From: a phage
Assembly: GCA_020241865.1 (NCBI GenBank)
Contig: GCA_020241865.1_4709.1
DNA length: 64,000 bases
Direction: 5' to 3' (one strand)
In this document: in pieces, positions 5,197 through 58,780 of the stretch
Layout: every line of letters starts with the position of its first letter
Position numbering within the stretch: the stretch's first letter is position 1
Notes under the pieces: generated by a model
Databases searched by the model: none
What the model saw: only the letters and a program-made list of their open reading frames with translations
What the model was told of the DNA's origin: nothing
Made by a program: the position numbers and the translations under genes

Positions 5197-7755
5197 TTAC
5201 TGCTCTTCACGTTCCAGCAGATACTCGGAAGCGGTAATACCGTTTACCGTACGTACTGCTTTCAGACGAGTATCATCGCTCAGAATTACAGTAACAGATT
5301 GCAGACCTTTTACTTTGGTTTCGAAGGTCTTGAACACCTGATCCAGCATACGAGCAATGCTTGGGTTGGTTGCAGCTGATGCGTGGGTGTAACCGCTTTG
5401 GTTCAGCTTCAGAATCTTGGCGTTGGTCGGTACGCGAACAACAACATGCGGACGCATCGCGAATACGCTGTGATTAAACCAGTAAGCATCGTTGCTATCT
5501 TCGTCGGTAACGATGTCTGGATTAACACGCATATCCTCGACAGCCGCATCCGCCAAACGACGTTCGATTTCGTCAGCATCCAGAGAGCCATCTTTCTCCA
5601 GTTCTGCACGATACTCACTCATGGCAACCAGATGACGTTCACGATTCGCTGCGGATTTTTCGTGAGCGGCTTTCAGGTAGTCATGCATGTTGTACAGTTC
5701 TGCCATGGAAAGACGAATGTTCCACTGACCTTCGCCGTCACGATTGCAGTAGAGACACTTCAGCATGTTGACCCAGGTATAGTAGCAATTGGAGAATTCA
5801 TCTTCAATGAACTTCTGGTCCATTTTAAGATCGTGAATCAGCCAACCGGACAGTTCTCCGATATCATCAACGAAGCTAGAGATGGTGGTTTCAGAGAAGT
5901 TCTTCGGTACGATACGTTTGATCAGCTTATTGACGTCTTTGGTCATGCTATCGTTCAGGAAATGCCAGATACGCAGAGGAATGACATCTCGATACTGTTG
6001 CATGATCTGACGATAAGCTTTGATATCGTCGCTACGACCTTTATCAATAGACAACGCATCCAGGAATTCATGGATTGCATCCAGCTCTTTGTCGGTATAG
6101 GTTCCCAGATAGGAATTGACCGTAGCCAGGAATGCTAATGCGTCGTTTTGGTTGACGTCGGTGTTGGTCTGCTGAATGATCGCTACTGAAGCTTTGGTTT
6201 CAGCATCCTCAACGCTTGACGCTGCGATCGCATCGGTGACGGTAAACAGTTTCATTTCGCGCTGCTCACCGACAACGATTGGCTCACGCTGAACCGGCTT
6301 GTTAAGACTAACGCGAACGACTTCTGCTTGCGCGATACGATCCAGTTTTGCCATTTCCTGCTCTGCCATACGACGAGCGGTTGGATCTGATTCAAGTTCG
6401 ATGTATTCCACTTCTTCCTCCGTGAGGGATGTAATGTCAACAATGGTTTCATGAAGAATTCCGTTTTCGTCGATACGTGCTCGACGAGCGAAGTGCCTGA
6501 AGTCATACAACGTCGGCCAACGACTATTAGGTGCGTAGTCTTTGGCTTTCAGACGCATCTGCATAAATTCTTCATGTTGAACAACACGACCGTAACGCTT
6601 AGCATCTTCGGTCGCATCAATTGGATTAACGGTCTTTGTTGCCGTAGCGGAACGAGCCGTACGAACCGGTTCCGGTTTCACCTGCGTCGGTTCAGGTTGA
6701 ACGGGTTTCTGCTGTCCAGCCTTAACATGCCATTCTGGCTCTTCGTACTGTTCAGCAAATTGCTCAGCCGCTGCAAAGATATCGTTGATACCACCAATAT
6801 CTCCTTCAGGATTTGTCGAGTAAATCCGTGGTTGTGGTGCCTCGTAACGCGGCGCTGTAGCAGCAGGTGCGTCATCAACGATAGGATCGTCATCACCAAC
6901 ATCATACAAACGGTTGAACGCACAATCCTTCGAATCAATGTACGATGGCGCTTGTGGTTGGACAACCGTCGGCCGAGGTTGTGCGCCGTATCCTGGTGTT
7001 GTTGGAGCCATGCCGCGCATAACTGCCGGACTAGGTTGGTATTGCGGTTGCGGATAGGTTCCACCATACATGGCGTACGCAGGCTGTTGTGGTTGACCAT
7101 ACCCGCTGCTAACCATCGCACTTGCTTGCGGCCCACGATAAGTCATCCCCATCTGCATCACCTGCTGCTTCAAACCACGTGACTTCTGAGCGATTTGCGC
7201 CAGACTCCCGCTTTTATTCAGCTGCGTGTACTTATTCGCGGCTTCCGGGTTAATGCGTGATAATTCAATCGCGCGATAATATTCCGGGTACTGATTCGGT
7301 TCAAAGAGCCACGTTACAAGATGATACAGCGCAACTGTACTCACGGCAGCAGAGACGATCTGGTCATCGGACGCGTTCTGTGGCATCGGGTTGATGTAAG
7401 AGAATACGTTCCAACAACAGTCTTCAACAAGCGATTCCATCATCATATCGTTATTGGTATAACGTGCGACGAACTCGGTTTGTATTTTGTCTTGCTGAGC
7501 GAAGTCTTTCAGGACATTAAAGATGGCTTGACGGATTTTGACGATCGTCGCTTCTTGGGTGATGAAGTTATAGTTCTGCTGATATGAGGGTTGTTGGTAT
7601 TGTGGTGGTTGATAGGCGTTATTCGGGTATGCGCCGTACGGCGATTGCTGATACTGTTGCTGGCGAACCTGTTCAGCCGCATAATTAACCGTGCTCGTAT
7701 AAGGGTTTTCGCTATAACCCATTTGTTGATACATGTTGTTACTGCCATTATACAT
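5197..7755 (-). CDS. hypothetical protein (852 aa) with Q/Y/P-rich low-complexity N-terminus and internal segment
   Basis: ORF track; ATG 7755 with AAAGGA upstream; long stop-free antisense frames suggest codon bias. Confidence 0.85.
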   Translation of the reverse strand: MYNGSNNMYQQMGYSENPYTSTVNYAAEQVRQQQYQQSPYGAYPNNAYQPPQYQQPSYQQNYNFITQEATIVKIRQAIFNVLKDFAQQDKIQTEFVARYTNNDMMMESLVEDCCWNVFSYINPMPQNASDDQIVSAAVSTVALYHLVTWLFEPNQYPEYYRAIELSRINPEAANKYTQLNKSGSLAQIAQKSRGLKQQVMQMGMTYRGPQASAMVSSGYGQPQQPAYAMYGGTYPQPQYQPSPAVMRGMAPTTPGYGAQPRPTVVQPQAPSYIDSKDCAFNRLYDVGDDDPIVDDAPAATAPRYEAPQPRIYSTNPEGDIGGINDIFAAAEQFAEQYEEPEWHVKAGQQKPVQPEPTQVKPEPVRTARSATATKTVNPIDATEDAKRYGRVVQHEEFMQMRLKAKDYAPNSRWPTLYDFRHFARRARIDENGILHETIVDITSLTEEEVEYIELESDPTARRMAEQEMAKLDRIAQAEVVRVSLNKPVQREPIVVGEQREMKLFTVTDAIAASSVEDAETKASVAIIQQTNTDVNQNDALAFLATVNSYLGTYTDKELDAIHEFLDALSIDKGRSDDIKAYRQIMQQYRDVIPLRIWHFLNDSMTKDVNKLIKRIVPKNFSETTISSFVDDIGELSGWLIHDLKMDQKFIEDEFSNCYYTWVNMLKCLYCNRDGEGQWNIRLSMAELYNMHDYLKAAHEKSAANRERHLVAMSEYRAELEKDGSLDADEIERRLADAAVEDMRVNPDIVTDEDSNDAYWFNHSVFAMRPHVVVRVPTNAKILKLNQSGYTHASAATNPSIARMLDQVFKTFETKVKGLQSVTVILSDDTRLKAVRTVNGITASEYLLEREEQ

Positions 7756-11236: not shown

Positions 11237-11270
11237 TTTTTTCTATTCGCAACAATAAACGGCATAGAAA

Positions 11271-11300
11271 CCTCCCCCAACCCTTACGGGCTGAGGGAGG
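11271..11300 (-). terminator. GC-rich stem-loop, family member in inverted orientation (CCTCCC...GGGAGG around CCC-TTAC-GGG)
   Basis: Inverted repeat read from sequence; downstream of stop of gene 11400-13622 on minus strand. Confidence 0.5.
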
Positions 11301-11399
11301 CTGACTTATGTATCACGGTGCCGGATGAATGTCCGGTGCAATGAAACCATCCGCAACGTTGTCGTCAAGAATATCGTCCAACGAAGCAGCTACGGTAGT

Positions 11400-13622
11400 T
11401 CAGTTAGTCTGAACAGGCAGCTTGATGTTTTCAGTGTAGACCTTACGCAGGTTCACAACGTTAATCAGACCCAGCAGCGGGCAGTTGTTAACGAAGCGGC
11501 AGCGCGGCTGAACCATGGTTTCTTTAGAAACCTGACCGTTACGGGTAACCTGAGCAACAGATACCAGTTCCGGTACATACAGGAACATACCGAAGGTCAG
11601 CGGATCCGGAGAACCCTGGATACCACGAGACAGGGTCACGAAGATCTTATCGCGCAGCATGACGTTCGGGTTATCTACAACCACGAAGTTGAAGCTTACA
11701 CCAACGGTGCGGAAATCACCATCGGTCTGCAGGAACTGCGGGATGTAGTTGTCAGTTGCTACTACGCAACGCGGTTTCTCATCAGCGTTGGAAGACAGCA
11801 GCTGCAGAGCTGGCTGATAACCAGACTCGGAGTACATGCGGTATGCCATCTCACGAATCACGTTCATGATCGCAGCAGACACTTCAGCACGACGTTCTGC
11901 AGTGGTGGTACCCTGAACAGATTTCTCCAGGTCCAGATTGATTTCTTCGAACCACGGACGGATCAGGTAACGACCGAAACCTTCGATCTGGATGTCGCCG
12001 AACTGACGGAAGCGAGAGGTCGCAACCGCTTTCAGTGCGTCTTTGTAGCTGAACAGTTTCTCAACCATCAGGTTGTCGAAACGTGCGTTAGCAGCTTGGA
12101 TCAGAACGTCCAGGTCAGCAGCGTTTTCTTCCCAATCCAGCGGACGAGGAATGGAGAACGGAGCCAGCAGGCCGATTGCGTAACGTTCTTGCTTCATGTT
12201 GAAGTCAAGGTGCTTACCGCGCTCACGACGGTTGCTGTTGTTACGGCGGATACGCAGTTCGTAACCAACCAGTTTGAAGCTCAGGTCTTCAGCCAGTTGT
12301 TTGAACTCTTCGCTCTTACGCGGTTGTTCGATGTTGTCCTGATCAACCAGGCGATACAGTTCAGCGTTAGCGCCGTTAACACGCAGACCGGCTTTCTCTA
12401 CGTTGGAAGAACCGTAAACTTCGATCGCCAGCTGAGCAGCAGATTTCGCATCGATGATGTCCTGCAGCGCTTCAGCTTTCGCGCCTTTAACGTCTTTGGT
12501 GTTCTCATCAACGAAGATGGAGTGGGTGTCGAACGCCAGGGTCATTTTGCGGAAGTCGCCTTCCAGGGATTTCTGGAAACCGTTGGTGATCAGACCAGAT
12601 ACGTCGAACGGTACGTAAGAGGTTTTGCTGTGCTTGGTAGATTTGATTTCCACCAGGATTTTGGTCAGCGTGATCTGGGCGTCCAGCGCGTCGGTGTTGT
12701 CGCTGTAACCGTTAGCCAGGATGCTATCGTCTTCAGCAATACCGATCATGTCGATCAGTTTATCAACAGCCAGGTAAGACGTTTTGTAAGTTACGCCTTT
12801 AATTTCGATGTCGCGCGGAGCAACGATAGCTTTGTCAACGAAGTACTGTGCGTTAGCATCGTCAGCACGATAGATCGGATGCAGATCGGTCACGTCGTTG
12901 GACAGAACGTCGTTGTACATGAACGCATCCAGCAGCGGACGACGTACCCAATCAGCCGGAGTACCGTCAGCGTTACGACGCAGGTGGTTGAACACCAGCG
13001 GACGACGGAAAGATACGTCGTAACCGATCTGGTTCGGAGCCAGAACGATGGTGTTGTACAGTTCGTTACCCATGCGGCTCAGACGAGAAGCCTTCACGTT
13101 GAACACAACGGAGTACGGCATCATGTCACGCAGTTCTTTCTGGTCGTAGGACAGCTGAACCAGTTCTTCAGATTCGCAACCGCAGGAATCAGCAGCCATC
13201 ATGACGAAGTTAGAGCTGTCAACTTCACGGCCAGACGGAGTGGTGCTGATGTTCATGGAACGTGCTTGTTTAGCATATTCTACCGGGTTACCATGAGCCA
13301 GCATGATCAGTGCTGCTGCACGAGCCTGCTGTGCGTTCATGGTGAACAGCTGTTCTTCAATACGCTGCTTCTCTTCCGGAGTGGTGGTTTCGAAGCCCAG
13401 CATGGACAGAACCGGTTCTTCGGCTTTACGGATGTCGCTGCTGAAGCTCTTAACATCCATTTCGTTAACCAGTTTGTCCATGGATTTGAAATCAACCTTA
13501 GAAGCAGATTCCATAGACAGGAAGGTGTTCTCCAGACCTTTGTCTGCTGGTTTGCTACCATTAGCGGTCAGGAACTGGCGAGTGGCCGCGACCTGTTGGC
13601 TAAGAAGGGTTTTATCATTCAT
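11400..13622 (-). CDS. highly expressed virion protein, candidate major capsid protein (740 aa)
   Basis: ORF track; ATG 13622 with AAAGGA upstream; strong codon bias (CTG, CGT, GGT, GAA dominate) and a 766-aa stop-free antisense frame; size fits jumbo-phage capsid proteins; no motif-level proof. Confidence 0.85.
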   Translation of the reverse strand: MNDKTLLSQQVAATRQFLTANGSKPADKGLENTFLSMESASKVDFKSMDKLVNEMDVKSFSSDIRKAEEPVLSMLGFETTTPEEKQRIEEQLFTMNAQQARAAALIMLAHGNPVEYAKQARSMNISTTPSGREVDSSNFVMMAADSCGCESEELVQLSYDQKELRDMMPYSVVFNVKASRLSRMGNELYNTIVLAPNQIGYDVSFRRPLVFNHLRRNADGTPADWVRRPLLDAFMYNDVLSNDVTDLHPIYRADDANAQYFVDKAIVAPRDIEIKGVTYKTSYLAVDKLIDMIGIAEDDSILANGYSDNTDALDAQITLTKILVEIKSTKHSKTSYVPFDVSGLITNGFQKSLEGDFRKMTLAFDTHSIFVDENTKDVKGAKAEALQDIIDAKSAAQLAIEVYGSSNVEKAGLRVNGANAELYRLVDQDNIEQPRKSEEFKQLAEDLSFKLVGYELRIRRNNSNRRERGKHLDFNMKQERYAIGLLAPFSIPRPLDWEENAADLDVLIQAANARFDNLMVEKLFSYKDALKAVATSRFRQFGDIQIEGFGRYLIRPWFEEINLDLEKSVQGTTTAERRAEVSAAIMNVIREMAYRMYSESGYQPALQLLSSNADEKPRCVVATDNYIPQFLQTDGDFRTVGVSFNFVVVDNPNVMLRDKIFVTLSRGIQGSPDPLTFGMFLYVPELVSVAQVTRNGQVSKETMVQPRCRFVNNCPLLGLINVVNLRKVYTENIKLPVQTN

Positions 13623-13771
13623 TGAAAGTATCCTTTACAGAATTAACTTATATAAGTCGGTCGATAGACCATAGCGTACACGCGTGCATGCGCCACTATA
13701 GTATCAGTAAACACTTACCGTTATTGAGGTCGTGATACAACACTAAAAATGCCGCATAACTTTTCCCTACG

Positions 13772-17492: not shown

Positions 17493-17567
17493 CGTTTTTA
17501 CCTTTCTATGTTAGGTGGATTGCGGATAGAAGAATCAATGCATAGACTGATTTAAGTTTGTTAAGGT

Positions 17568-18470
17568 TTACTTAGTCTTCGAGTTACAAGGACTGACATG
17601 TTGTTGTACTCGTTGAATCGTATCGTAGTACGGGTTAGATTGGTTGAACATGCTGTTGTGTGGATGATAGCCGTATGGCGCATTTTGCCTTGTTGATGAG
17701 AAACCTTGTTGAGAAGGACGATTTGAATTAACCGCGAGTACGTAGTAAACCAAATTTTGACGGTCGAACGTTCCTTCGTTTTTGAAGGTGTCGGCGTAGG
17801 TGTTTATCGCTGGAGCGAGTCTATCACCATCGGCGGTAATAATTGTACCGTCTGGGTAAACTTCACGAACGACGCACCATGTTCCGATAAGAACGTCTTT
17901 GGGCGGCGTATTGCCGTATCCGGTTGTAACGGTAAGGTAAGTATCGAACCCTTCAGAACAACAAGGATGACGATAGATAGGTCCTGTCATTTCCGTTCTA
18001 TCGGTATCGTCGCATTTCTCTATCGAGAGCGATGGTGTGTCGGTTTTGAAATTGTCAAATTCTTTCTTTAAGTCGATTACAGGTTCTTTCGTATAGTACT
18101 TCTTGATTGCTTTGACGTAAAGATCAGGAACGGTTGTCAGCATTCCGTTATACCTGATTCTCAGGTTTTCGAGTAATCCAAAGATACTCGCGCATGCTTG
18201 TTCGCGAGGTTTTGTAAGATAAGAGATCCCCCCAGGAACGCTGGGATCTTTGAGAAAGAAGATTGCGTTATTGTCGTTGTGCAGTGCGTTGAAGAAAACG
18301 ATTGATTCGATATATACGGAGCATAGGCTGTCGTTGGCGTCGTCAGATAACACCCAGATGCACTCATCGGTCGTCTTGTTTAAAAGTTCTGTTTTGTCCA
18401 CCAAACGTTGTTTCATTGCGAGGAAATGTGCCTGTTGTTCAGCGGATAATTCACGATAAATAGTGGTCAT
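17568..18470 (-). CDS. hypothetical protein, tandem paralog of 18556-19329 (about 300 aa)
   Basis: Track ORF 17568-18548 trimmed to ATG 18470 (AAGGAG 6 nt upstream); shares IY-HP-C...YL-T-G and REVYPDG-I motifs with neighbour. Confidence 0.8.
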   Translation of the reverse strand: MTTIYRELSAEQQAHFLAMKQRLVDKTELLNKTTDECIWVLSDDANDSLCSVYIESIVFFNALHNDNNAIFFLKDPSVPGGISYLTKPREQACASIFGLLENLRIRYNGMLTTVPDLYVKAIKKYYTKEPVIDLKKEFDNFKTDTPSLSIEKCDDTDRTEMTGPIYRHPCCSEGFDTYLTVTTGYGNTPPKDVLIGTWCVVREVYPDGTIITADGDRLAPAINTYADTFKNEGTFDRQNLVYYVLAVNSNRPSQQGFSSTRQNAPYGYHPHNSMFNQSNPYYDTIQRVQQHVSPCNSKTK

Positions 18471-18517
18471 GTTGAGCTCCTTGATTACGATAAGGATGAT
18501 TGCGGTTTTGTGATGCT

Positions 18518-18546
18518 GGTAGGGCCCTAAACAAAGGAGCCCTACC
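18518..18546 (-). terminator. stem-loop GGTAGGGC/GCCCTACC between tandem paralogs
   Basis: 8-bp inverted repeat with 13-nt loop in the spacer between stop 18556 and start 18470. Confidence 0.5.
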
Positions 18547-18555
18547 AATATTGGG

Positions 18556-19329
18556 TTACTCAGGATCGGCGTAGAAATGGTGAGGATAGCCGGAGTACGA
18601 TCCCGCGTTACCGGCTATGGATTCTTTCTGGGAATCGACGACGAGCGCATAGAACTGTCGGGAATTTGTTAGCGTTGAGAAATAAGCGGAAAGGACTTTT
18701 TCATTCAACGCATCGCAAGGTAGACAGGTGCGACCGCAAAACGTCACGATACGGCCGTCGGGATAGATCTCACGAATCATTCTCCACTCACCGATATCCA
18801 CTGGTGATGGCGCTGCTACACCACCTGTTATCGTTAAGTAACGATCGTACGTGGTATGGCATTCAGGATGAATATAGATCGGCTTGTTCGTTTCGACAGG
18901 TTCCGAAGTATCTCGACGACTAAGAAGCTCAACGACTTCAAGATAAATCGTTGGTAGATCGCGGAGAATACCGGTGCTACGACGTTTCTTTGTGATTCGC
19001 GGACGAATCTCGTTGAGAGCGTATTCGAGCTTACGTTCAGCTTCGTACGCATCGAGTTTTATCAGGCGACCCGGTTCATCGGAATGATCCTGAGTTACGT
19101 AAACGAAATACGCGTTGCCTTTTGCAGCGTGAAAGATTCGAGCGACCTTAAATGTTTCTACGGTACGATACCCAAGGCGCGATTGATTTTCCACAGGAGA
19201 AAATATCCAATGTCGTCCTTCGTCCGCCTCAACAATTTCGTTGAAACTATCCGTTTGTTCTGGGACCTGGTAGTCAGCCATTAATGTATCAAGAGCGTCG
19301 TCAGCCAGTTTGATGTAAATATCTGTCAT
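18556..19329 (-). CDS. hypothetical protein, tandem paralog of 17568-18470 (about 258 aa)
   Basis: Track ORF runs to 19542 through the intergenic stem-loop and promoter-like motif; ATG 19329 has GAGGA upstream and begins MTDIYIKL, matching MTTIYREL of the paralog. Confidence 0.8.
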   Translation of the reverse strand: MTDIYIKLADDALDTLMADYQVPEQTDSFNEIVEADEGRHWIFSPVENQSRLGYRTVETFKVARIFHAAKGNAYFVYVTQDHSDEPGRLIKLDAYEAERKLEYALNEIRPRITKKRRSTGILRDLPTIYLEVVELLSRRDTSEPVETNKPIYIHPECHTTYDRYLTITGGVAAPSPVDIGEWRMIREIYPDGRIVTFCGRTCLPCDALNEKVLSAYFSTLTNSRQFYALVVDSQKESIAGNAGSYSGYPHHFYADPE

Positions 19330-24686: not shown

Positions 24687-24731
24687 CGCAGATTCCTGTT
24701 TGAAAGATAAGATATCACATGATGGTCGACA

Positions 24732-24768
24732 GCATAAAGCCCACCCCGAAGGGCGGGCTGTTTATGCG
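24732..24768 (-). terminator. stem-loop GCATAAAGCCCACCCC-GAA-GGGCGGGCTGTTTATGC (looser family relative)
   Basis: Imperfect inverted repeat whose CATAAA/TTTATG flanks also pair; between stop 24775 and start 24686. Confidence 0.5.
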
Positions 24769-24774
24769 TACGGA

Positions 24775-27700
24775 TTACTTGTAGGCACCGCAATGGGCTT
24801 TGATGAGGAAAAGCACCGCTTGCATCGGTTTATTGAACTGTTGCCATAACGTCAATGCCGGATGGAACAACCAATCTTCCAGGCCGAGAACAATACCGTA
24901 GTTAACGACATTATTAACATCGTTCTCAACGTTGAGTTCGCTATCCAGGAATTTATCGATTGAACGCAGGGTCTGCATGGCGTTGTCAGCAATAAGCCAA
25001 GCTTCATGTGCTTCACGAGCCGCACGCAGCACTGCCTCCAGTTCGCTGATAGTAGCTACCGGTAATTCCTCACTGGTGAGGTCGTCAGAAACCGTAAACT
25101 GGCGATTGATACCGGTGTAGATCCACTGCATCAGTTTCGCTGCTTCCTCGTTCGGGTTGTTACGCGTTGTCGCATAAGTCGCGCTCACCTTCACGATGTG
25201 CGTTTCACCAAGATACGCTTTGGACCCAACACCTTTACGATCGCTGTCTTTCCACGGTTGTACGGTAGCGACCATGAGCTTATCCCATTTCTGAATAGGA
25301 ATACGCTTCAGACCAACAACCGATCCAGCGGATGTTTCGGACTGGTTGCTCTTCCGCACGTCGCTGAGCTCACGATCGATCGCAACGATTAATTCACGCG
25401 TCATGTTACCAAGCATTTTGATTTCACCCAACGCAGCGATGAGCTTCTTCACATCGGTAACAGGTTCACCACCGATGGTAAGATGACGGATGAAACGTTT
25501 CAGAATAATCCGTTCTGCTGCTGGGTTACCGCGACGCGCTTTGGCCAGCGCTTGCTGTGTTTCGGCGAACAGCTTATCCCATGGAGCCGTAGCGGCGGTA
25601 TAGTAACGATGGTTGGTTTCAATCCAGTTACCGATACGGTTAACCGCGCTCTTAACGGTATCCATGAATCCTTCCATCGCAATTTCGGTAGCTTCGACGT
25701 TACCCTGGAAGTTATCGGGACCGATCTCGCGTGCCGCTACCAGAATACCTTCCACCGCGCTCACCGCGTGGCGACCGATAGCCAGATTTCGCTGCGCTTC
25801 TTCAGCACGCTCAACGAATTCCACCACCGCAGGATTATCAACGATTTCCGCCTCGGCAACAACACGTGTACCGGCATCGCCTTCCAGTGTTTCGATGGTG
25901 ACAACAGGATCGTTTTCACCAGCAACATCCTGGTATTCTTCCTGTTTGAGATCGCCGTTATCAGCCGCTGCGACAGCGGTGAGTATACGAACGGTAACAT
26001 CGCCGAGTTCTTTTGCAGCGAATCCGTAAACGGTGCATGCGGTCGTTGCAAAGTTCATCAGGGTACGTGTGCGCTGCGTGACGTAGCGTGCGCCCGATTC
26101 GTTTTCCACTTTGTCCAGATCGCGGAGTAACTGCTCAGCCGTCTCCTGAAGTTGAGTAACTGCTTTCAGGAGGTCTTCGTCAAACAGTTTCGTTGCCGCA
26201 CCGATCAGCATTTCAACGCTAACGTTGGACGGCACAGCATCATCCTGTTGTTTCATGGCGCTAAGTTCGTCACGGAACTCACGAATGCCGTTTAACGCAT
26301 CGTCGATAGAATATCCGAACGCTTTCACGCCCGCCATTCCAAGAGCTGCTTTCATTTCAGCTGGATGCTGAACTTGCTCGCCTTCCTTGCTGTTCTTTAA
26401 CTCATCGAAATATTTCTTCGACGCGTCCGCAATACGTTTACTGTCTTTAACCGCATTTACGATCTTATCGACAGATTTCGAGTCGTTTGCGAGCAGCGTA
26501 TCCAGTTTATTCCACTCAACGTCAACCTTCTTGGTGTCGCTCGGCGGAGGAAGCAGTTTCATCACTGGTGCTGTGCGTTGTTCTTTGGTCAGCTTGTCGG
26601 CCTTCTCTTCGATTTTTTTCTTATTAACACCAAAGAGATTTTTCAAACGCGCCACGAGGGCTTTTAAGAACTTCGCGACCGCTTCGTAAACCGATTTCAG
26701 AATCTGTTTAAAGCGACCCGGCTGCTTTTCCCCGTCTTCCAGATTGAGATCGCTGTTCAGTGCGACATCAAGCTGTTTGTACGATTCCATGATGTATTCG
26801 TCTTTGATTTCAGGACGAATCTCGAAGCTTTCCATCGGACCTTCAGCCGGACGGAATTCCATTTTCAGTTCGCCTTGCAGGGTAGGGTCGACAATGGCGA
26901 TCGCTTCACCCTGACCATCAGCGTTAAAGCGTTCAGCGTAACGAGTACGGCGAACAATAACACTCTTATCCCCATCAAGACGACGTACCACCATGGTGCC
27001 AGGAATGTACGGTTGTTCTGTTTCAATGACGGTTACATCTGTTTCACCCTCACCGAGAATAACAGATGCACGCTGTTCAACAACAGGAACATCTAATACA
27101 CCACGGGCTTCCAGCTCTTGATGAATTTCGAACGACTCTTGTTTCAGATCTTCATCTTCTTCGTTTTCGTCGTCTTCATCATCGTCACCTTTGGTGTTTT
27201 CATCACCCTTGGTGGTTGTGTCGTCGGTGGCACCAGCGTCAGCGTCGGTGTTAGCAGGTTCTTCGGACGCAGGTTCGGTGGTGTTGTCCTCCGTGGACGA
27301 CCCGTCAGTGTTATCGACATCAACATCACCTTGCAGTTCTGTTTCCTGAGCAACTGCTTCGGCTTTCTGCTCGCCGGTATTACCATCATTAGCGTCGACA
27401 ACAGGTTGTTCGTCAGCGACGGTATCTTCAACCTTTTCTACTTTCTCCACGACACGTTTAATCACGGTGACTTTGATGGGTTCTTCCGTTGTTTTGGTTT
27501 CTGGCGTCACCTCGGTTGCCGCAGCCGCTGTTTCAGCAACAGGTTCTGCTTTTTCCGGTTCGACGACATTACCTTTAACACCTTCGGTGGTTTCTGCAGG
27601 TTGCGCTGCCTGTTCGATTTGCGCCGGATTGGTTGGATCGATGGCGTTAGCCGCATCCTGAATCTTGTTCTTCAGGTTGTCGCGGTCAGCGTTAACGGTC

Positions 27701-28152
27701 GGGTCGTTGGTCACTTTCGGTGCCGGTGTTTCGGTCGGTGCGTTTGCCGGATACGGGTTCTTCGGCTCTTCGCCAGGTGCGGTCGGTACCGCGATCAGAA
27801 CGAACGGTTGAACATCGTTACCGTCTTCCATGGTTACGCCACCGTTGCTCGGTGTGAAACGAATTCGTAAACTACCATCAATAGGACGGGTCACAATAAC
27901 AGCACGTACGACATCCTCACCGTTCTCATCCGTGCTACGAATCACACGAACAGCGTCATCAACGGTAGCCCCTTCCTCGAGCGTATCTGATTCGATCGTC
28001 GCTTCGATGCTGTCTGGCCGTGCCGCTGTAGGTAATGCGATCACTTGCTCTTCTTTATCAGTAGAAAGCGTTGCTTTGACTTCGATAGGTGTATCGCCGC
28101 TTTCCAGGTTAAGATGCGACTTACGCATCAGATCAGCTAACGATTTTTTCAT
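24775..28152 (-). CDS. large virion-internal protein candidate (1125 aa) with acidic low-complexity central region; C-terminal part shares the EGF-x-IW motif of the paralog family
   Basis: ORF track; ATG 28152 with AGAGGA upstream; motif MEGFMDTVKSAVNRIGNWI. Confidence 0.85.
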   Translation of the reverse strand: MKKSLADLMRKSHLNLESGDTPIEVKATLSTDKEEQVIALPTAARPDSIEATIESDTLEEGATVDDAVRVIRSTDENGEDVVRAVIVTRPIDGSLRIRFTPSNGGVTMEDGNDVQPFVLIAVPTAPGEEPKNPYPANAPTETPAPKVTNDPTVNADRDNLKNKIQDAANAIDPTNPAQIEQAAQPAETTEGVKGNVVEPEKAEPVAETAAAATEVTPETKTTEEPIKVTVIKRVVEKVEKVEDTVADEQPVVDANDGNTGEQKAEAVAQETELQGDVDVDNTDGSSTEDNTTEPASEEPANTDADAGATDDTTTKGDENTKGDDDEDDENEEDEDLKQESFEIHQELEARGVLDVPVVEQRASVILGEGETDVTVIETEQPYIPGTMVVRRLDGDKSVIVRRTRYAERFNADGQGEAIAIVDPTLQGELKMEFRPAEGPMESFEIRPEIKDEYIMESYKQLDVALNSDLNLEDGEKQPGRFKQILKSVYEAVAKFLKALVARLKNLFGVNKKKIEEKADKLTKEQRTAPVMKLLPPPSDTKKVDVEWNKLDTLLANDSKSVDKIVNAVKDSKRIADASKKYFDELKNSKEGEQVQHPAEMKAALGMAGVKAFGYSIDDALNGIREFRDELSAMKQQDDAVPSNVSVEMLIGAATKLFDEDLLKAVTQLQETAEQLLRDLDKVENESGARYVTQRTRTLMNFATTACTVYGFAAKELGDVTVRILTAVAAADNGDLKQEEYQDVAGENDPVVTIETLEGDAGTRVVAEAEIVDNPAVVEFVERAEEAQRNLAIGRHAVSAVEGILVAAREIGPDNFQGNVEATEIAMEGFMDTVKSAVNRIGNWIETNHRYYTAATAPWDKLFAETQQALAKARRGNPAAERIILKRFIRHLTIGGEPVTDVKKLIAALGEIKMLGNMTRELIVAIDRELSDVRKSNQSETSAGSVVGLKRIPIQKWDKLMVATVQPWKDSDRKGVGSKAYLGETHIVKVSATYATTRNNPNEEAAKLMQWIYTGINRQFTVSDDLTSEELPVATISELEAVLRAAREAHEAWLIADNAMQTLRSIDKFLDSELNVENDVNNVVNYGIVLGLEDWLFHPALTLWQQFNKPMQAVLFLIKAHCGAYK

Positions 28153-33323: not shown

Positions 33324-33371
33324 GTGTTGTCTCCAGTAATGATTCAAAAGATAAACCTGAGCGGCATAGAA

Positions 33372-33403
33372 CCCTCTCCCAACCCGTAAGGGAAGGGAGA
33401 GGG
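33372..33403 (-). terminator. GC-rich stem-loop CCCTCTCCC-AA-CCC-GTAA-GGG-AA-GGGAGAGGG (family member)
   Basis: Perfect inverted repeat between stop 33426 and start 33323. Confidence 0.65.
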
Positions 33404-33425: not shown

Positions 33426-34748
33426 TTACTGCTGTGCTGCGTCAGCCGGTTTCTCAGCCGCCTGGCCGCCGTACTCTTTCAGCATTTTAGCAACGCCATC
33501 CAGGACAGCGTTACCTGCCTGAACACCGTATTTCATCAGACCGGTCTGCGGGTTCACGTAGCAGGAACGTGCGTCTTTCAGTGCAGACAGTACAGCTTGA
33601 ACACGCTGTTTTTCCTGAGCGGAAACTTCGCCTTTCTTAGACAGATCGGCTTCCATATCGTCACCGAATTTAACAGCGTCTTTGAAGCCCTGGGATTTCT
33701 TACCGATGTTGCCTTTCAGCGCCAGCAGTTTGTCGGCCAGTGCTTCAACACCGCTAACCGCAGCAGCCAGCTGATTCAGGGACAGGACGGTAGCTTCAAC
33801 TTCTTTTGCTTCGCCAGAGCGTTCCCAGGTTACTTTACCATCATTGGCTTTGAAACCCCAACCTGCCGGGCCAGCAACGTCAGCAATCGCCGGAGCGTTC
33901 AGTTTATCAGCGTACTCGGTGTGAGATTTAGCAACAACGGTACCAACGAATTTATCAGCACGATCGTCAGCAGCCTTCATTGCTTTCTCGAAGGTGTCAG
34001 CGATTTTGGTCGCGCCGGTAACCAGATCATCACCACCGATGTAACCAGAAACGCCGCTACCCAGTTTAACTTTGGTATTTTTAGCAGCGCCTTTACGCTT
34101 GGCGATCATTTCTTTCAGTTTAGCAGCACGTGCTTTCAGTTTGGTCGCGCCGTCGAAGATGCGATCCATGAACTTCACGAAGGTTTCCCAGGAAGTCTTC
34201 AGGAAGTTCTTGATGGTTGCCCACAGTTTCTGCCACCATTTTTGTTCTTCCAGGAAGATCATGTTGGTTGCATCGTAGCGGGAAGCGGAACCACCGAAGC
34301 TTTCGAAGGAAGGCATGGTTTCCGGCAGTTTGAAACCGATAGTACCACACAGACGTTTCAGATTACGCATGTGTTCTTGCGCGGTCTGTGCAGACATACC
34401 ACCGTCTTTCAGGTAGCTTTCGGTTGCAACAACGGTTTCCGTCAGTTCATCCATGGCTTCGTCCATGGCTTCTGCGGTTTCGTCGTCTTTTGCAATTTCG
34501 ATAACAACAGCATCAACCTGCTCGATATCACCACGAACTTCGATAGCCAGTTCGGTTTCAGCTGCGGTATCTTCAGCGATTTCAGCACGTTCGGTCAGTT
34601 CAGCCACAACGGTTTCATCCGCTGGTGCAGCATCAGCTGCCGGTTCTGCTTCAACGGTTGCCGCTGCATCCGGGTCGATCTCAGCAGCCAGTTGAACCAG
34701 CTGTGCGTTAGATGGATTTGCGACAAGACGATCAAAAATAGAAGGCAT
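33426..34748 (-). CDS. highly expressed paralog-family protein (440 aa), abundant virion protein candidate
   Basis: ORF track; ATG 34748 with AAAGGA upstream; strong codon bias and 390-aa stop-free antisense frame; motif SFESFGG...KLWATI. Confidence 0.85.
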   Translation of the reverse strand: MPSIFDRLVANPSNAQLVQLAAEIDPDAAATVEAEPAADAAPADETVVAELTERAEIAEDTAAETELAIEVRGDIEQVDAVVIEIAKDDETAEAMDEAMDELTETVVATESYLKDGGMSAQTAQEHMRNLKRLCGTIGFKLPETMPSFESFGGSASRYDATNMIFLEEQKWWQKLWATIKNFLKTSWETFVKFMDRIFDGATKLKARAAKLKEMIAKRKGAAKNTKVKLGSGVSGYIGGDDLVTGATKIADTFEKAMKAADDRADKFVGTVVAKSHTEYADKLNAPAIADVAGPAGWGFKANDGKVTWERSGEAKEVEATVLSLNQLAAAVSGVEALADKLLALKGNIGKKSQGFKDAVKFGDDMEADLSKKGEVSAQEKQRVQAVLSALKDARSCYVNPQTGLMKYGVQAGNAVLDGVAKMLKEYGGQAAEKPADAAQQ

Positions 34749-34791
34749 AATTTGTTTCCTTTACAATAAATTGCACATTAGCTAATGCGGC

Positions 34792-41687: not shown

Positions 41688-44600
41688 TTATCTTACGTTA
41701 TTGCTGTTCTGCTGTTCGCTGAACCAACCATACACCTTGAGATCGGTACCGTATTTCAACGCGATATACGCATTCAGCGCAGCACAGAACAAAGACGCGA
41801 ATGCCCATATCAGCGAAGGATCAACATCTTCCGTTACCATTGGGAGAGTATTATCCGGTTCCCATGATGGAGAACTGTCCATGAACGTTGCGTACCATCC
41901 CCGCCGTTGTTCTTCGGTGGTAAAGTCGCTATGGGGTTCCAATGCTTCTTTTGCCAGACGTCGATATTCGAACATATGCGTTGCTAAAGCCGATGAGTTA
42001 CCAGATTCGCCTTCATAGTTCGGATCCACCGCATAACAGAGTTCTGTGGAATCTAACAAAGCAACCGCCTGTGTGATGTTGTCGGCAGTGCCTGCACCAT
42101 AGAGCTCGATAGACCGCGAAAGCTTTTCACAGAACGCATTTAACGCGGAAGGATTGGACACCTGAAGGTCAAGGCCTAATGTCCACGGATAGTTACTGAA
42201 TACGCCCGTAAACCGCGGCATAACACCCAACAGATGTTGTCCGATTACAGCACGGTTATAAACAGCCCGGTTATAGACTTGAAACGCAGCCTCCAAAGCT
42301 TGGTTATAATGACGACGAAGTTCGTCACGCGAGTTGCGGAATCTGTTTGCCGCAAGACTTGTGGCTGCGACGCTACAAACATCGTAATTGGTGGACGAGA
42401 GCACAGTTTCGTTAAGATCGAACGATTCCTGTTTCAACGATCCGCTAACCGCTGCTGCTTCGCTGTTTGCTTTATCGACAACAGTACTCAAAGCGTTGAT
42501 GTAACGTTTAGCTCGGACTTCCAGCCATTGTGCGATACCGAGAATATCCACCGCGGCTTTAGCAAGATCGCGTGCATTCACGATTTCGTTCTTCAACGCC
42601 CCTAAACCTTTATTTTCAGGCGTTGAGGCTTGTTGACGAATCATACTGTTCAACATGGTAAGCAGATTATCCAACTCATGTCCGCTGACCTTGTTGCGCG
42701 CATCGGTAATCGGCCCTTGCAGGAATTTACGACAACCGTCATTATACCGAATCAGTTTATCCACGTCGATGGATTCGTTCGTGGTTTCCTTGAACTGATT
42801 CTTTAATTCTTCACGGTAGTCGTGTATCTCGCTTGTAAGATTATCAACGGTGATACCATTGTGACCAAGAAGAACTTTACTGAAGTTGCCCTTCTCGAAC
42901 GCCAGTGCGATGTCTTCACGAATCTTAGCCAGTTTATCCTGATCTAATTCACGACCGTTTGACAGTTCTTTCACTTCAGCACTGATTATTGCTGCAACCG
43001 TTCCAAGGTTATCGGTAACCCCTTTGAACGTGCTTGACCAAACACTTCCCGCTTCAGCGTATTTTGCGATGGTCTGGATACCGACGCTATGTAACGACGC
43101 TAAACGTTTCTTCGTACCTTCGGTAAGCAATGCATCTTTAGCTCGCGTAAGTTGACTGTTATTGGCTTCCGCTTGCTGGATGGCCGCTTTCGCATTCCCG
43201 TTACGCCAGCTCTTAACCAACCAATCGACCAAACGTTTCAGGATGTTGATGGTATATTCCATCGTACGTCGTAACGTTTCCCATGCGCTTTCAGCGGTAT
43301 AGATCCCACCAACAGTGTACCCTTCCATCTTCAGCGCTTTGGTATCGGTTTGACGTGCCAACCATTCTACCGTCGCAGAACAAACGTTTACGAACGCCTC
43401 CAGGTAGTTGTAATAGGCCTCTGTTGCGGAGGTTTCGTTGAGCTTCGAATGCAGATAAAACTGTTCGTATAGCTCGTCGTCATCACCGAAGGCGTCGTAG
43501 TTCCACAGTTCGGTATCGCAGCCGGTACCACAGAAGACATCCGCCGTTGTAAACTCCTTAAGTGCTTTCGTTGCGTCGTTGGTCAGGAATTTACCTGTCT
43601 CAAGTACGTCGTCAACATTAAGTCTCGGGAGTTCGTCAGTAATTGGGTTTTCCAGCATCAACGTATTGAAGAACACGCTGTACTTGTATCCAAGCCATTT
43701 TGGATAACTGTTTTCAGATATCGTAGACGCCGGTTTGATTTTCTTGGCTTCAGCCAACGTGTCTTCTGCAACCTGATATTGGTTTTCCCCAGCTTTGATA
43801 CGTCGTAATGCTTTTTCTTCCAACTGTTTGAGTTTGGTGTGCCGTGCTTGAGCTGGAGCCTCAACCAGTTTTTGTACCGACCGCATGGCGGAAATCGCTT
43901 CTTTCAATGTGGTGATCGGCATACGAACTTTACCGTCATCGAAACTCAGCGCGCGAGCAATACGTCGACTTACAACAGGTTCGGTATGGATGTTTCTTTC
44001 TACCCACGATTTGTTTGCGTAGGTTTGCGTGATTTGCTGCTGGATCTTTTCAAGATAGCCCCAGCTTTTGGATGCTTTGCCGTCCAAAAGCGGATTAGGT
44101 CCTTTCTTATCAAAAAGCTTTTTGATAGGATCAAAGAAACCTTCTTGCACGAGATCGATACGGGTGTAACCATCAGCTGCTTCGATTTCTTCTTGGGTTT
44201 TATCCCAGAAGTCGTCGCTCTTTGCAGCAACCGCTGTATCTTTAATGTCCAGGATGATCTGACCCACCGTTTGCGCAAACAGCAAGGCCGCACGTACCGA
44301 TTGTGCGAACATCCGCTGATATTTGATTCGAACGCATTGCATCTGGGTTAGCAGATTCAGTTGCGCGATCCCATCCAAGGTGCTATCTTGAGCAAGTCCT
44401 TCAGCCTTAGCGATAACCTGTTTTACACGTTCAGCGACATCAACGTATTGCTGGCATACATCCCGCAGAATACGTGCTGCGAAGACCCCGGTACCGATAT
44501 AGTTCAACAGGTCTTTTAATGACCATTCAGACGGACAATCGGCTGGTGCGGTAGGGAGTAAGCAACCATCACCGTCCATGAATCGCTCTAATGCACTAAT

Positions 44601-50137: not shown

Positions 50138-51889
50138 ATGAGCGAACAAGAACGAAAACCTAAGAAGAAACTGCTCGGTATTCAATGTCGACACATCAGC
50201 TATAACGAAGCGAACGATGGCAGCAAGAACGACCTCATGATCGCAAAAGAGATCATGTTCTTCGATGATAATACGCAAGCGACGAACCTTCGCTTCTTCG
50301 AGAATTACAAACGTCCGTTTTGGGTGACGGTAGAGAGTAAACGTAAGAACAAATATAAAAAGGAAAGCGAGAAGCTCTCGCATGTGCGTCGCTACGATGT
50401 CCGCCAAAGCGAACTGGTTGAAAAGATCAGCTCGGTACTTTATAAAAGACGTGCTGACGATAACACCCGTTTACAGCAGCTTGCACGGAGTCCATACCTC
50501 TATGGAACGGACGTTAGCGCCAGCTGTTATTTAAAAACCCAGTACAACACAAAATGGCCGGAATACGTCGATAAATTACCCGCTTCCATTGCCTGTTTCG
50601 ATATCGAAACCGACGTTGTCCACGGACACGGTAAGATCGTTTGTATGTCTATTACAATGGGATACAATGCGATACTTTGCTATACCAAGGACTTCGTTGG
50701 TCATATTCCGAATGCCATTGAGAAAACCCATGAGAAGATTCGATATTACCTGGCCGAACGTCTGAATACCAAAGAAGATCCCCACGCATTCGAAAAATAT
50801 CAGTACGATGTTCGAATCGTAGAAAGCCCGGCACAAGCGGTCATCCAATGCATGCAGAAGGTTCACGAATGGCAGCCGGATTATCTCCTTGGCTGGAATA
50901 TCGCGTTCGATATTCCGCGCATGCTCCAGGCACTGAACGAGGAAGGGTATCGTCCCGAGGATGTTTTCTCCGATCCCCGTATACCACCTAAATATCGTAT
51001 TGCTCGCTGGGTACCACCGAAGACCGACAAGGTATCTGCTTCAGGTCGTAAAACCAACCTTACCCTTGAGCAAACCTGGCCGATGTTTTATACGATGGCT
51101 ACGTATCAGGTTATGGATGCGATGTGTGGCTATAAGTTCGTTCGTTTAGGAAGACCGGATGAAGGACGCTATTCACTCGATGCGGTGTTAGAGCGAAATA
51201 AATGCCATACGAAATTAAAAGCTATTCCTGGTACAGAGGGGTTCACGGAGCTTGCCTGGCACGAAGAGATGCAAACGAACCATCAAATCGACTACGGCGT
51301 ATATAACCTTTGGGATAACCAGGGTATTGAGGCGTTGGACCAGAAAACAAAAGACTATTCGATGACCATCCCTATCCGTTTAGCGGCGTCGGATTTGAAA
51401 GATTTCAGTTCTAACCCTAAACGTATCTGCGATAAACTTTTCTTCGTTTATCTTAACCGTGGGGAAGTCATGGGATGTACCGCTGACGACATGACCCAGG
51501 AAGAAGATAAGTGGGTTATCTCACGAGCTGGACATATCGTCACATTACCATGCGATCTCATGGCTGACAACGGCATTCATCTCTTCTGGGATATGCCGAA
51601 CCTGAGAAGTTATATCCGTCTATTCGTTGCAGACCTTGACATTAGCAGTTCATACCCGAATGGGCAGATCCTGTTGAATCTATCCAGAGCGTGTGTTTTT
51701 CGCGAGCTCTCACGCATTGAGGGCGTCTCTGACTATCAATTCAGGAAGTTAGGTATCAACTTTATTACCGGAGGTAAAACGAACGCTGTAGACTTCTGTA
51801 GAATCGTTTATAAAGCACCATCGATGTTTGAACTTTTAGAACATTTCGATGCAACGCGTCCAAAAGAGGAAGCGCGGACCATCGAATGA
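50138..51889 (+). CDS. family-B DNA polymerase N-terminal fragment (3'-5' exonuclease domain plus motif A), 583 aa
   Basis: Motifs by eye in canonical order: Exo I CFDIETD (about residue 155), Exo II WNIAFDIP (about 258), Exo III Y-x3-D (YQVMD about 323 or YSLDAV about 345), motif-A-like DLDISSSYPNG (about 499); no motif B (K-x3-NS-x-YG) or motif C (YGDTDS) before stop. Confidence 0.8.
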   Translation: MSEQERKPKKKLLGIQCRHISYNEANDGSKNDLMIAKEIMFFDDNTQATNLRFFENYKRPFWVTVESKRKNKYKKESEKLSHVRRYDVRQSELVEKISSVLYKRRADDNTRLQQLARSPYLYGTDVSASCYLKTQYNTKWPEYVDKLPASIACFDIETDVVHGHGKIVCMSITMGYNAILCYTKDFVGHIPNAIEKTHEKIRYYLAERLNTKEDPHAFEKYQYDVRIVESPAQAVIQCMQKVHEWQPDYLLGWNIAFDIPRMLQALNEEGYRPEDVFSDPRIPPKYRIARWVPPKTDKVSASGRKTNLTLEQTWPMFYTMATYQVMDAMCGYKFVRLGRPDEGRYSLDAVLERNKCHTKLKAIPGTEGFTELAWHEEMQTNHQIDYGVYNLWDNQGIEALDQKTKDYSMTIPIRLAASDLKDFSSNPKRICDKLFFVYLNRGEVMGCTADDMTQEEDKWVISRAGHIVTLPCDLMADNGIHLFWDMPNLRSYIRLFVADLDISSSYPNGQILLNLSRACVFRELSRIEGVSDYQFRKLGINFITGGKTNAVDFCRIVYKAPSMFELLEHFDATRPKEEARTIE

Positions 51890-52531: not shown

Positions 52532-52996
52532 TTAGATATCGTCATCCGTGGTGCCGTAGGACATATGCTGAATTAATTTTCTCGGCTCGATGAAAATACG
52601 ACATGTGATAAACACATCGGGATCGTATTGCTCCACGCAACGTCCGAAGGTTTGTTTTGCGGCTTGGCGCATCGATGTTATTTCCTGATCGTTCATCGCA
52701 TTATCGAATTCGATGTTGATCGCGATTTTATCGGGAAATAAATAGATAAAGTAATCGCCGCTGATACCACCATCATCAAAGTGACGTTCATTGTAGCACT
52801 GGACGAGCTTACCTTCACGTTCTTTCTGATACCACCCAAGGATACTATTAAGACCTCTGTCCACGCATTCGAATGCTTGAGTAATAACATCCTCAACGAC
52901 GGATGCAGGCGTGGGACCATTGAATAGACGATCTAAGCGCTTTTTCATCGATTTGGTTTTCTCGTTCATGATTTCTTTTCCTGTTATAATCGGCAT
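52532..52996 (-). CDS. small hypothetical protein (154 aa), small-gene island
   Basis: ORF track; ATG 52996 lies 4 nt after the 3' arm of stem-loop 53001-53030, which supplies the only SD-like sequence (GGGGAAGGG). Confidence 0.75.
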   Translation of the reverse strand: MPIITGKEIMNEKTKSMKKRLDRLFNGPTPASVVEDVITQAFECVDRGLNSILGWYQKEREGKLVQCYNERHFDDGGISGDYFIYLFPDKIAINIEFDNAMNDQEITSMRQAAKQTFGRCVEQYDPDVFITCRIFIEPRKLIQHMSYGTTDDDI

Positions 52997-53000
52997 ACAA

Positions 53001-53030
53001 CCCTTCCCCGGCCTGATGGCTAGGGAAGGG
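53001..53030 (-). terminator. GC-rich stem-loop CCCTTCCC...GGGAAGGG (family relative) overlapping the ribosome-binding site of gene 52532-52996
   Basis: Inverted repeat between stop 53045 and start 52996. Confidence 0.55.
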
Positions 53031-53044
53031 GCTATGCTACGTTG

Positions 53045-53443
53045 TTATGCTTCGCAATCAGCTGAAGGCGTCGCGCCTTTCTTACCAGCGATACGCCAAA
53101 TCCGACACGCTGGGTAATGGTTAACCTCTAGAGAGCAAGGAATGTTATATTTCTCTTCCAGCGCATAAAGACATTTCGTTAGCTGCTCCAGCGCGTTCTC
53201 GTCGTGTCGTAACGCGTGGTGGCCTAATCGATGTTGGTCGTTCTTTATATACGCCTCGAAGAGAACATGTTGGCGATGTACGCTGACGTTTACAGCCTCG
53301 AGTATAGCTTGGTCGAGCATACGACTAAAGCACATCAACGAGTCAGATACGTTTTCTCGCTTAACCAGATCGATCATGGCGGGAATATACGAATGGTCGA
53401 TGTTATCGATGACCGCTTTAGCGACGGAATCAGCAACGTTCAT
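53045..53443 (-). CDS. small hypothetical protein (132 aa), tandem paralog of 53481-53876
   Basis: ORF track; shared motifs KAVxDNIDH, MIDxxK, EEKYNIP-SLEVN. Confidence 0.8.
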   Translation of the reverse strand: MNVADSVAKAVIDNIDHSYIPAMIDLVKRENVSDSLMCFSRMLDQAILEAVNVSVHRQHVLFEAYIKNDQHRLGHHALRHDENALEQLTKCLYALEEKYNIPCSLEVNHYPACRIWRIAGKKGATPSADCEA

Positions 53444-53480
53444 CTTTTTTAATCCCTAGTTTGTTATTGATCACGTATAT

Positions 53481-53876
53481 TTACTCTTTGACGTCAGTTG
53501 TCGTTTCGACATGCTTCTCACTACTGACGTACCAGAGCAGGTACGCTGGGAAAAGATTGACCTCTAAGCTAAATGGGATATTGTATTTCTCTTCCATTTT
53601 ACAGAGATGTTCTTTAAGTAAATTTCTCGCGTCTCTGTCACCACGAACAGAGTGCCAGTCTAGTTCTTTGTTCTCCTTTACCAGGACCTCTACGATGATA
53701 CGTTGCTCGTGAACCTCGGTTTTCACAGTGAAAAGTAAATCGCTGCTATCCAAACGGGTAAAACGAATGTATGAACCAGGTGTTTTTTCTTGTTTAATAA
53801 TATCGATCATGGTAGAAATGCGCGGATGATCGATGTTGTCGTTAACAGCTTTAACGATGGATTCTACAATGCTCAT
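53481..53876 (-). CDS. small hypothetical protein (131 aa), tandem paralog of 53045-53443
   Basis: ORF track; ATG 53876 with AAGGA upstream. Confidence 0.8.
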   Translation of the reverse strand: MSIVESIVKAVNDNIDHPRISTMIDIIKQEKTPGSYIRFTRLDSSDLLFTVKTEVHEQRIIVEVLVKENKELDWHSVRGDRDARNLLKEHLCKMEEKYNIPFSLEVNLFPAYLLWYVSSEKHVETTTDVKE

Positions 53877-53908
53877 TTTTTATCCTTAATGTTATCGATT
53901 TGGAAATA

Positions 53909-54676: not shown

Positions 54677-54678
54677 GA

Positions 54679-57437: not shown

Positions 57438-57467
57438 CGTTAACACGAAATAAAAAACAGCATAGAA

Positions 57468-57507
57468 CCCTCCTCCCACATCCTTCAAGAGGACGGTGGG
57501 AAGAGGG
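57468..57507 (-). terminator. GC-rich stem-loop CCCTCCTCCC...GGGAAGAGGG (family member, enlarged loop)
   Basis: Inverted repeat with one mismatch, 6 nt after stop of gene 57513-57914. Confidence 0.55.
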
Positions 57508-57914: not shown

Positions 57915-57968
57915 GGAGTGCTTTTCCTATTTTTATTTTCTGCACAGGATAAATTCAACGGCATAAAG

Positions 57969-58755: not shown

Positions 58756-58780
58756 GTTTATTTCCTTTCATTTAACAAGG

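Follow-up and report, generated by a model that had tools for sequence, protein, structure and literature searches.

Three codon-biased genes in a Goslar-like jumbo phage

The 64,000-nucleotide (nt) stretch of phage DNA analysed here (contig GCA_020241865.1_4709.1, referred to as the window) carries three genes, all on the minus strand, that are set apart from their neighbours by the codons typical of highly expressed Escherichia coli genes. They are located at 11400-13622, 33426-34748 and 58129-58755 and code for proteins of 740, 440 and 208 amino acids (aa), respectively. A preliminary description of this DNA, made from the letters of the sequence, had proposed them to be its most highly expressed products and had guessed at a major capsid protein, an abundant internal protein and a small abundant protein. 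All three functional guesses were right.

The window is closely related to Escherichia phage vB_EcoM_Goslar (about 94-99% nt identity), a 237-kb jumbo phage of the genus Goslarvirus that infects E. coli and forms a phage nucleus. For the capsid-gene region, Goslar records were the sole matches in the phage collection searched, with 99.0% nt identity. Position 1 of the window corresponds approximately to Goslar position 32040 on the identical strand, and orthologs of 45 annotated Goslar proteins were found (gp036-gp068 and gp070-gp082, minus the 62-aa gp047), most of them with 94-100% aa identity. By these matches, the source is assigned to a Goslar-like chimallivirus, that is, a nucleus-forming jumbo phage of E. 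coli. Its genome is distinct from that of Goslar, with 23 nt changed in the capsid gene and several insertions and deletions on the kilobase scale, and it is also distinct from two further Goslar-like contigs in IMG/VR. Neither the window nor the whole Goslar genome contains a tRNA gene detected by ARAGORN, and an Rfam scan of the window gave zero matches.

The protein encoded at 11400-13622 (minus strand) matched the Pfam family PF25620, PhiKZ_MCP, with 725.7 bits (cut-off 27, E = 5e-218) over profile positions 2-635 of 635, and PHROG 3231, major head protein, with E = 1.5e-164. It shares 99.7% aa identity with Goslar gp41. Among PDB entries, it matched the Goslar 'Major capsid protein' of 11bt and 36za (E = 0), phiKZ gp120 of 8y6v (7e-56) and the major head protein of 8bfl (6e-62). 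We assign this gene, on the strength of these matches, as the ortholog of gp41 in the phiKZ gp120 family, coding for a phiKZ-type major capsid protein (MCP). The Goslar MCP is processed (10.64898/2026.04.21.720040), and a cleaved propeptide is implied because the MCP chain of 36za, which corresponds to residues 158-740 of the query, begins at residue 158.

The protein encoded at 33426-34748 (minus strand) matched PF12699, phiKZ_IP, over residues 85-419 (79.3 bits, cut-off 27, E = 4.4e-22), as well as PHROG 5750 and PHROG 2497, 'internal head protein', and is 99.5% identical in aa sequence to Goslar gp58. The gene adjoins the paralogs gp055-057, with mutual BLASTP matches, and gp053, and orthologs of phiKZ ORF087-089 lie just beyond. 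Synteny of the Goslar PF12699 paralog cluster with phiKZ gp92-97 has been stated in the work that describes Goslar gp58 as the single dominant PF12699 protein, injected into the host (10.64898/2026.04.21.720040). The gene is accordingly annotated, by family and synteny, as coding for a phiKZ-like internal head protein of the PF12699 family, the ortholog of this dominant ejected protein.

The protein encoded at 58129-58755 (minus strand) matched, over residues 1-208, the 'Capsid Decorator gp77' of PDB entry 11fg, a cryo-electron microscopy (cryo-EM) structure, with E = 1.3e-126. It belongs to PHROG 18957 and matched no Pfam family. Its aa identity to Goslar gp77 is 94.8%, with the differences confined to the first ~30 residues and an identical C-terminal part of 150 aa. 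The N-terminal ~60 aa are variable and of low complexity, and the C-terminal ~150 aa form a conserved globular domain. These data assign the gene as the Goslar gp77 ortholog, a predicted capsid decoration protein. We noticed that chain 7 of 36za (147 residues, equivalent to decorator residues 62-208) is named 'Inner-peripheral baseplate spoke gp220', the same sequence being named 'Capsid Decorator gp77' in 11fg; the former seems to be a naming error in that copy of the database.

Codon usage and protein abundance

The codon adaptation index (CAI) was computed with weights from a set of 30 E. coli K-12 genes (26 ribosomal protein genes, rpoA, tufA and fusA; S10-spc-alpha and str operons; 5185 codons), and 51 genes of the window were scored, with starts as in the Goslar annotation. 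The gp41-like, gp58-like and gp77-like genes ranked 1 to 3 of the 51, for a window median of about 0.40, which bears out the proposal that host-like optimal codons distinguish them. We also resampled synonymous codons from the pooled usage of the window with the amino acids of each protein held fixed, and the CAI expected for the three genes was then 0.43-0.47. The observed CAI was 0.808 for the capsid gene, the maximum of the window (z +22.4), 0.787 for the gp58-like gene (z +14.4) and 0.597 for the gp77-like gene (z +4.3), with effective numbers of codons (Nc) of 30.3, 30.0 and 41.6, respectively. They were followed by the orthologs of gp053 (24775-28152, minus strand; CAI 0.537, z +6.1, Nc 42.1) and gp038 (5197-7755, minus strand; CAI 0.523, z +4.2, Nc 44.9), and the Nc of the remaining window genes ranged from 41.5 to 58.8. 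With the same weights, the E. coli reference genes averaged 0.684, ordinary E. coli genes fell between 0.24 and 0.54, and the cryptic gsp genes between 0.24 and 0.39. The gp41-like and gp58-like genes are thus extreme outliers, whereas the gp77-like gene merely heads a continuum: its third rank stands, but it is only modestly above gp053 (0.54) and gp038 (0.52) and is much less biased than the two others.

The preliminary description had the three genes using CTG, CGT, GGT, GAA and AAA almost exclusively. This holds for CTG alone, which makes up 96-97% of the Leu codons in the gp41-like and gp58-like genes. In the biased genes, CGT (72-77%) and GGT (64-76%) are shared with CGC and GGC, which account for the remainder, and GAA (77-84%) and AAA (73-83%) barely differ from the 72% and 67% of the neighbours, so that the last two do not discriminate. 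The avoidance of other codons is complete in the gp41-like and gp58-like genes, where TTA, CTA, TCA, AGA, AGG, CGA, CGG, ATA, GGA, GGG, AGT, CCC and ACA are all absent. As the preliminary description had stated, the neighbouring genes do use AGA, CGA, ATA and TTA: their codon table has TTA for 21% of Leu, CGA for 11% and AGA for 5% of Arg, and ATA for 8% of Ile. When the relative synonymous codon usage (RSCU) over 59 codons was compared with that of the ribosomal set of E. coli, the correlation coefficient r was 0.97 for the two top genes, whereas the remainder of the window reached 0.69 and E. coli genes of weak expression 0.71. Preferences that are neutral for GC content also match the host (CGT over CGC, GGT over GGC, GCT over GCC, GTT over GTC, and TCT). 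The GC content at third codon positions (GC3) is 0.48 in the gp58-like gene, the same as in the window, and is raised in the capsid gene (0.60 vs about 0.48). Neither amino-acid composition nor GC3 is the source of the high CAI, both being ruled out by the resampling at fixed amino acids and by the unchanged GC3 of the gp58-like gene. In both top genes, the first 60 codons are less adapted (0.66 and 0.69 vs about 0.8).

In the gp77-like gene, CTG makes up 69% of the Leu codons, and two TTA, one GGA and one CGG are present. The two TTA are sense codons 101 and 108, 7 codons apart, and both are kept in Goslar (codons 105 and 112). The local CAI of this gene is lowest in its middle third (0.51).

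We then compared CAI with two published protein data sets. The first, for the virion, consists of cryo-EM models and copy numbers from label-free quantification (LFQ) by mass spectrometry (10.64898/2026.04.21.720040), from which 105 listed proteins were matched to genes. The second, for infected cells at 110 min, consists of tandem mass tag (TMT) intensities (Table S4 of 10.1101/2023.09.22.559000) for the 108 best-identified proteins. In the Goslar virion, gp41 was modelled at 1615 copies and gp58 is present at about 2150 copies; for gp77, 60 copies were modelled, with more at low occupancy, and LFQ gave ~430 (about 290-680) (10.64898/2026.04.21.720040). Together, gp58 and gp41 account for ~31% of all virion residues. 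CAI correlated with LFQ copy number in the virion (Spearman 0.59, p = 3e-11, n = 105) and with TMT intensity per mass in the infected cell (Spearman 0.71, n = 108). On the latter scale, gp41, gp58 and gp77 rank 1st, 3rd and 4th among the 108 proteins and are the top three among the window genes. The claim that these genes give the most highly expressed products is therefore supported by both proteomes.

The CAI of gp41, gp58 and gp77 in Goslar is 0.80, 0.79 and 0.58. When all genes of Goslar are ranked, gp41, gp58, gp23, gp214 and chimallin (gp246) have the top five values and gp77 the sixth, and each of these six proteins is one of the most abundant in at least one of the two data sets. Within the PF12699 cluster, CAI follows the copies per virion reported in 10.64898/2026.04.21.720040: 0.79 for gp58 (about 2150 copies), 0.53-0.54 for gp53 (~330 copies) and 0.31-0.48 for gp54-57 (~50-70 copies each). 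The gp23 gene of Goslar (L004, 16862-17404, plus strand; 180 aa, DUF7941) has a CAI of 0.73 and about 2140 copies per virion. The gp214 gene (L007, 5234-5713, minus strand; 159 aa), also with a CAI of 0.73, has about 865 copies and ranks 2nd by TMT per mass. Both values fall between those of gp58 and chimallin (0.70), and the two genes would have been singled out as coding for major products by their codons only. Concerning the fifth-ranked gene of the window, the gp038 ortholog at 5197-7755 (852 aa), about 25 copies per virion are reported, yet its infected-cell signal is fairly strong, so that the protein may be abundant without being part of the virion. Its sole Pfam match, Cas9_C_2, is below threshold (18.6 bits vs a cut-off of 27) and was set aside as probably spurious.

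Antisense frames, intergenic elements and differences from Goslar

All six open reading frames (ORFs) of the preliminary description, namely the three genes and the three frames antisense to them on the plus strand, were recovered. Of the capsid gene and its antisense ORF (11325-13625, 766 aa), the ORF is the longer; those over the gp58-like gene and over the 5' half of the gp77-like gene extend over 33597-34769 (390 aa) and 58465-58788 (107 aa), the last being limited by the TTA at sense codons 101 and 108. All three are in register with the sense codons, and antisense stops can therefore come only from sense TTA, CTA or TCA. These codons make up 3.15% of the codons of the neighbours, so that 23 and 14 would be expected in the capsid and gp58-like genes, and none is seen (P = 5e-11 and 8e-7). 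The long antisense frames are open because the reverse complements of the stop codons are TTA, CTA and TCA, all three of them avoided.

One could take these ORFs for real overlapping genes that constrain the codons of the sense strand, and the 766-aa ORF does exceed the capsid gene in length. We consider this to be the least probable of all the readings weighed here, with hardly any chance of being right, since the lack of TTA, CTA and TCA fully accounts for the openness of frames in this register. In Goslar, moreover, each of the two longer genes has one TCA (capsid codon 130, gp58 codon 234), which places a stop in the antisense frame. The substitutions between the window and Goslar, 23 in the capsid gene and 26 in the gp58-like gene, are synonymous in the sense frame in 21 and 24 cases, respectively; in the antisense frame, only 2 and 4 of them are synonymous, with 21/23 and 22/26 non-synonymous. 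Pfam and PHROG searches with the antisense translations gave no family match. Complete antisense openness is also found in E. coli tufA, rplB and rpsC and in the capsid gene of vB_EcoM_EC001 (EC001; MN445185), an SPN3US-like E. coli jumbo phage. Register, Goslar stops, substitution pattern and absent family matches rule out the antisense ORFs as genes: they are by-products of the codon bias.

Hairpin elements were found between the genes on the minus strand. About 100 nt past the stop of the capsid gene, a GC-rich hairpin of -29.7 kcal/mol is directly followed by TCTATGCCG (11260-11302). A hairpin of -26.2 kcal/mol with TCTATGCCG lies just downstream of the gp58-like gene (33362-33403), and one of -20.3 kcal/mol with TTTATGCCG lies downstream of the gp77-like gene (57959-58000). 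Further intergenic elements of this kind are at ~24730-24775, ~57458-57505 and ~52991-53035. In all six, a hairpin of -19 to -30 kcal/mol is immediately followed by T[CGT]TATGC[CT]G, and the elements lie just downstream of the four genes with the highest CAI of the window (gp41, gp58, gp77 and gp53) and of two others. Many of the stems have the common sequence CCCTCC..CCCGTAAGGG..GGAGGG. Over the whole Goslar genome, 30 of the 86 TATGCYG sites have a hairpin of at most -15 kcal/mol immediately upstream, compared to 2.2% of random 48-mers. Since the late promoters of phiKZ have the consensus TATG, with the G as start site (PMC4666361), the elements are probably cassettes made of a terminator and a phiKZ-type late promoter. 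Scans for Sigma-70-type promoters and intrinsic terminators around the three genes showed no enrichment over shuffled sequences, as expected because the phage uses its own RNA polymerases.

The window differs from Goslar at several other places. The family-B DNA polymerase gene at 50138-51889 (plus strand) is a continuous ORF of 583 aa; in Goslar, the gene is split by an insertion of ~1.78 kb (Goslar 81186-82966) that carries gp069, a NUMOD1/HNH homing-endonuclease gene, and the insertion-free allele of the window has the corresponding junction near 51633-51653. Three segments are not in Goslar. The first (17552-19324; 1.77 kb) contains two ORFs (326 and 328 aa) and replaces an 82-nt stretch that includes part of gp047 (62 aa). 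The second (53054-54688; 1.63 kb) contains three ORFs (132, 131 and 255 aa). The third, at 43333-44127, adds 795 nt in frame to the gp064 ortholog, which reaches 1197 aa vs 930 aa in Goslar. The ORFs of these segments gave no Pfam match, and their CAI is low (0.32-0.45).

Proposed translational selection, other explanations and known systems

The explanation that we favour, with a probability of about 0.88, is that the codons of the three genes have been shaped by translational selection toward those of the highly expressed genes of the host, in step with the abundance of each protein. Selection would have brought synonymous codons to match those read by the most abundant E. coli tRNAs. The phage depends on the tRNA pool of the host because it has no tRNA genes, and its mRNAs are translated in the cytoplasm by host ribosomes. 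With optimal codons, ribosomes would be tied up for less time and make fewer errors on proteins that each particle requires by the thousand, and the strength of the bias would therefore be expected to track the amount made of each. We infer selection for the efficiency or the accuracy of translation as the cause.

The bias might also have been selected mainly for some property of the mRNA, such as stability against host RNases, export out of the phage nucleus or ChmC binding, or evasion of RNA-targeting defence, the resemblance to the host being then partly coincidental. In chimalliviruses, the mRNAs have to leave the phage nucleus, and ChmC binds those of the phage close to their start codons (10.1101/2023.09.22.559000); the raised GC3 of the capsid gene and the lower adaptation of the first 60 codons in both top genes would fit such a cause. 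However, the gp58-like gene has an equal bias with unchanged GC3, and the correlation of r = 0.97 over 59 codons, GC-neutral choices included, is a specific signature of matching to the tRNA pool. The same pattern is seen, moreover, in the unrelated EC001 and, more weakly, in T7 and lambda, both of which lack a nucleus. We therefore regard an mRNA property as an unlikely main cause. Still less probable, with only a slight chance, is a recent horizontal transfer that brought in the three genes from the host or from a phage of different composition, their codons then reflecting this foreign origin. The sharp codon contrast with the flanking genes would be expected from it, and in other places the genome forms a mosaic when compared to Goslar. 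The genes belong, however, to core chimallivirus families (PF25620, PF12699) in a conserved phiKZ-like gene order (10.64898/2026.04.21.720040), with no host homologs, and the nearest MCP outside the Goslar group is under 35% identical. Since ordinary E. coli genes have a CAI of 0.24-0.54, transfer from the host would not yield 0.8; with the core phage families, this rules out the host as donor.

Several observations weigh against translational selection on these genes or limit how far it can be taken. Synonymous differences per codon from Goslar-like relatives are 0.027-0.065 in the MCP gene and 0.054 in the gp58 gene, within the 0.01-0.14 of the neighbours, in a divergence that is regional, mosaic and shallow; a clearly lower value, as purifying selection on silent sites would be expected to give, is not seen. 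The three genes share a modest Shine-Dalgarno sequence, TAAAGGA(A/T)A, and stand mid-table for anti-Shine-Dalgarno pairing; stronger Shine-Dalgarno sites, as an independent sign of high expression, were thus not found. Proteins of high copy number can have ordinary codons, as for gp158 (about 926 copies, CAI 0.44) and gp208 (about 384 copies, CAI 0.39), and gp23 has a high CAI yet a low TMT signal. All the proteomics come from Goslar, whose gp41, gp58 and gp77 are 99.7%, 99.5% and 94.8% identical to the proteins of the window, and are semi-quantitative. That the choice of codons would improve yield or fitness, the causal step of the explanation, is drawn from the sequence and from the correlation with abundance. 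A search of IMG/VR for relatives of intermediate divergence, by which the codon adaptation could be dated, returned near-identical Goslar-like contigs only.

A broader idea may be put forward, as a speculation more than as a conclusion. In nucleus-forming jumbo phages devoid of tRNA genes, translation could be so limiting that CAI becomes a near-quantitative readout of protein stoichiometry, exceeding the host ribosomal genes in some five genes per genome; the hairpin and TATGCYG cassettes would isolate such genes as late units, with joint tuning at both levels. If this were true, CAI alone would reveal proteins that are abundant but of unknown role, such as gp214 and gp23 of Goslar (CAI 0.73), beside chimallin. 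In practical terms, codon usage read from the raw sequence was enough to recognise correctly which products are most abundant in a jumbo phage region not characterised before, and for chimalliviruses CAI against host ribosomal genes offers an inexpensive way to predict protein abundance.

The effect, although clear, is an ordinary instance of a known phenomenon, with only its degree being notable. Translational selection on the head and tail genes of coliphages was shown by Lucks, Nelson, Kudla & Plotkin in 2008 (PLoS Comput Biol; PMC2266997), so that, from that year at the latest, such selection on the structural genes of phages has been established knowledge, and the Goslar proteins have already been characterised by structure and mass spectrometry; there is no new biology in this respect. 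Full-text literature searches found no paper on the codon usage of Goslar, and Goslar-like phages were not in the 2008 sample. Compared to the coliphages of that study, the effect is the same and is here tied quantitatively to measured copy number. Compared to the classical cases, the bias is confined to very few genes and is stronger: the CAI is 0.64 for T7 gene 10A and 0.55 for lambda E, vs 0.81 and 0.79 for the two top genes here, which also exceed the mean of the E. coli reference set.

The closest counterparts are gp41, gp58 and gp77 of Goslar, orthologs with the same order, strand and CAI, and three further Goslar-like MCP alleles have a CAI of 0.80 each. With E. coli tufA and the ribosomal genes, the likeness extends to a nearly identical RSCU (r = 0.97) and to the same in-register antisense openness; those, however, are host genes, and it is convergence, not ancestry, that gave the phage genes this usage. 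The nearest parallel in another lineage is EC001, where the MCP gene has a CAI of 0.78 and two PF12699 genes of ~420 aa have 0.74 each, for a median of 0.41, and where the antisense frame of the MCP gene is open over its full length, as in the capsid gene of the window. EC001 differs in belonging to the genus Seoulvirus, in an MCP about 25% identical and in having two co-dominant PF12699 genes instead of one.

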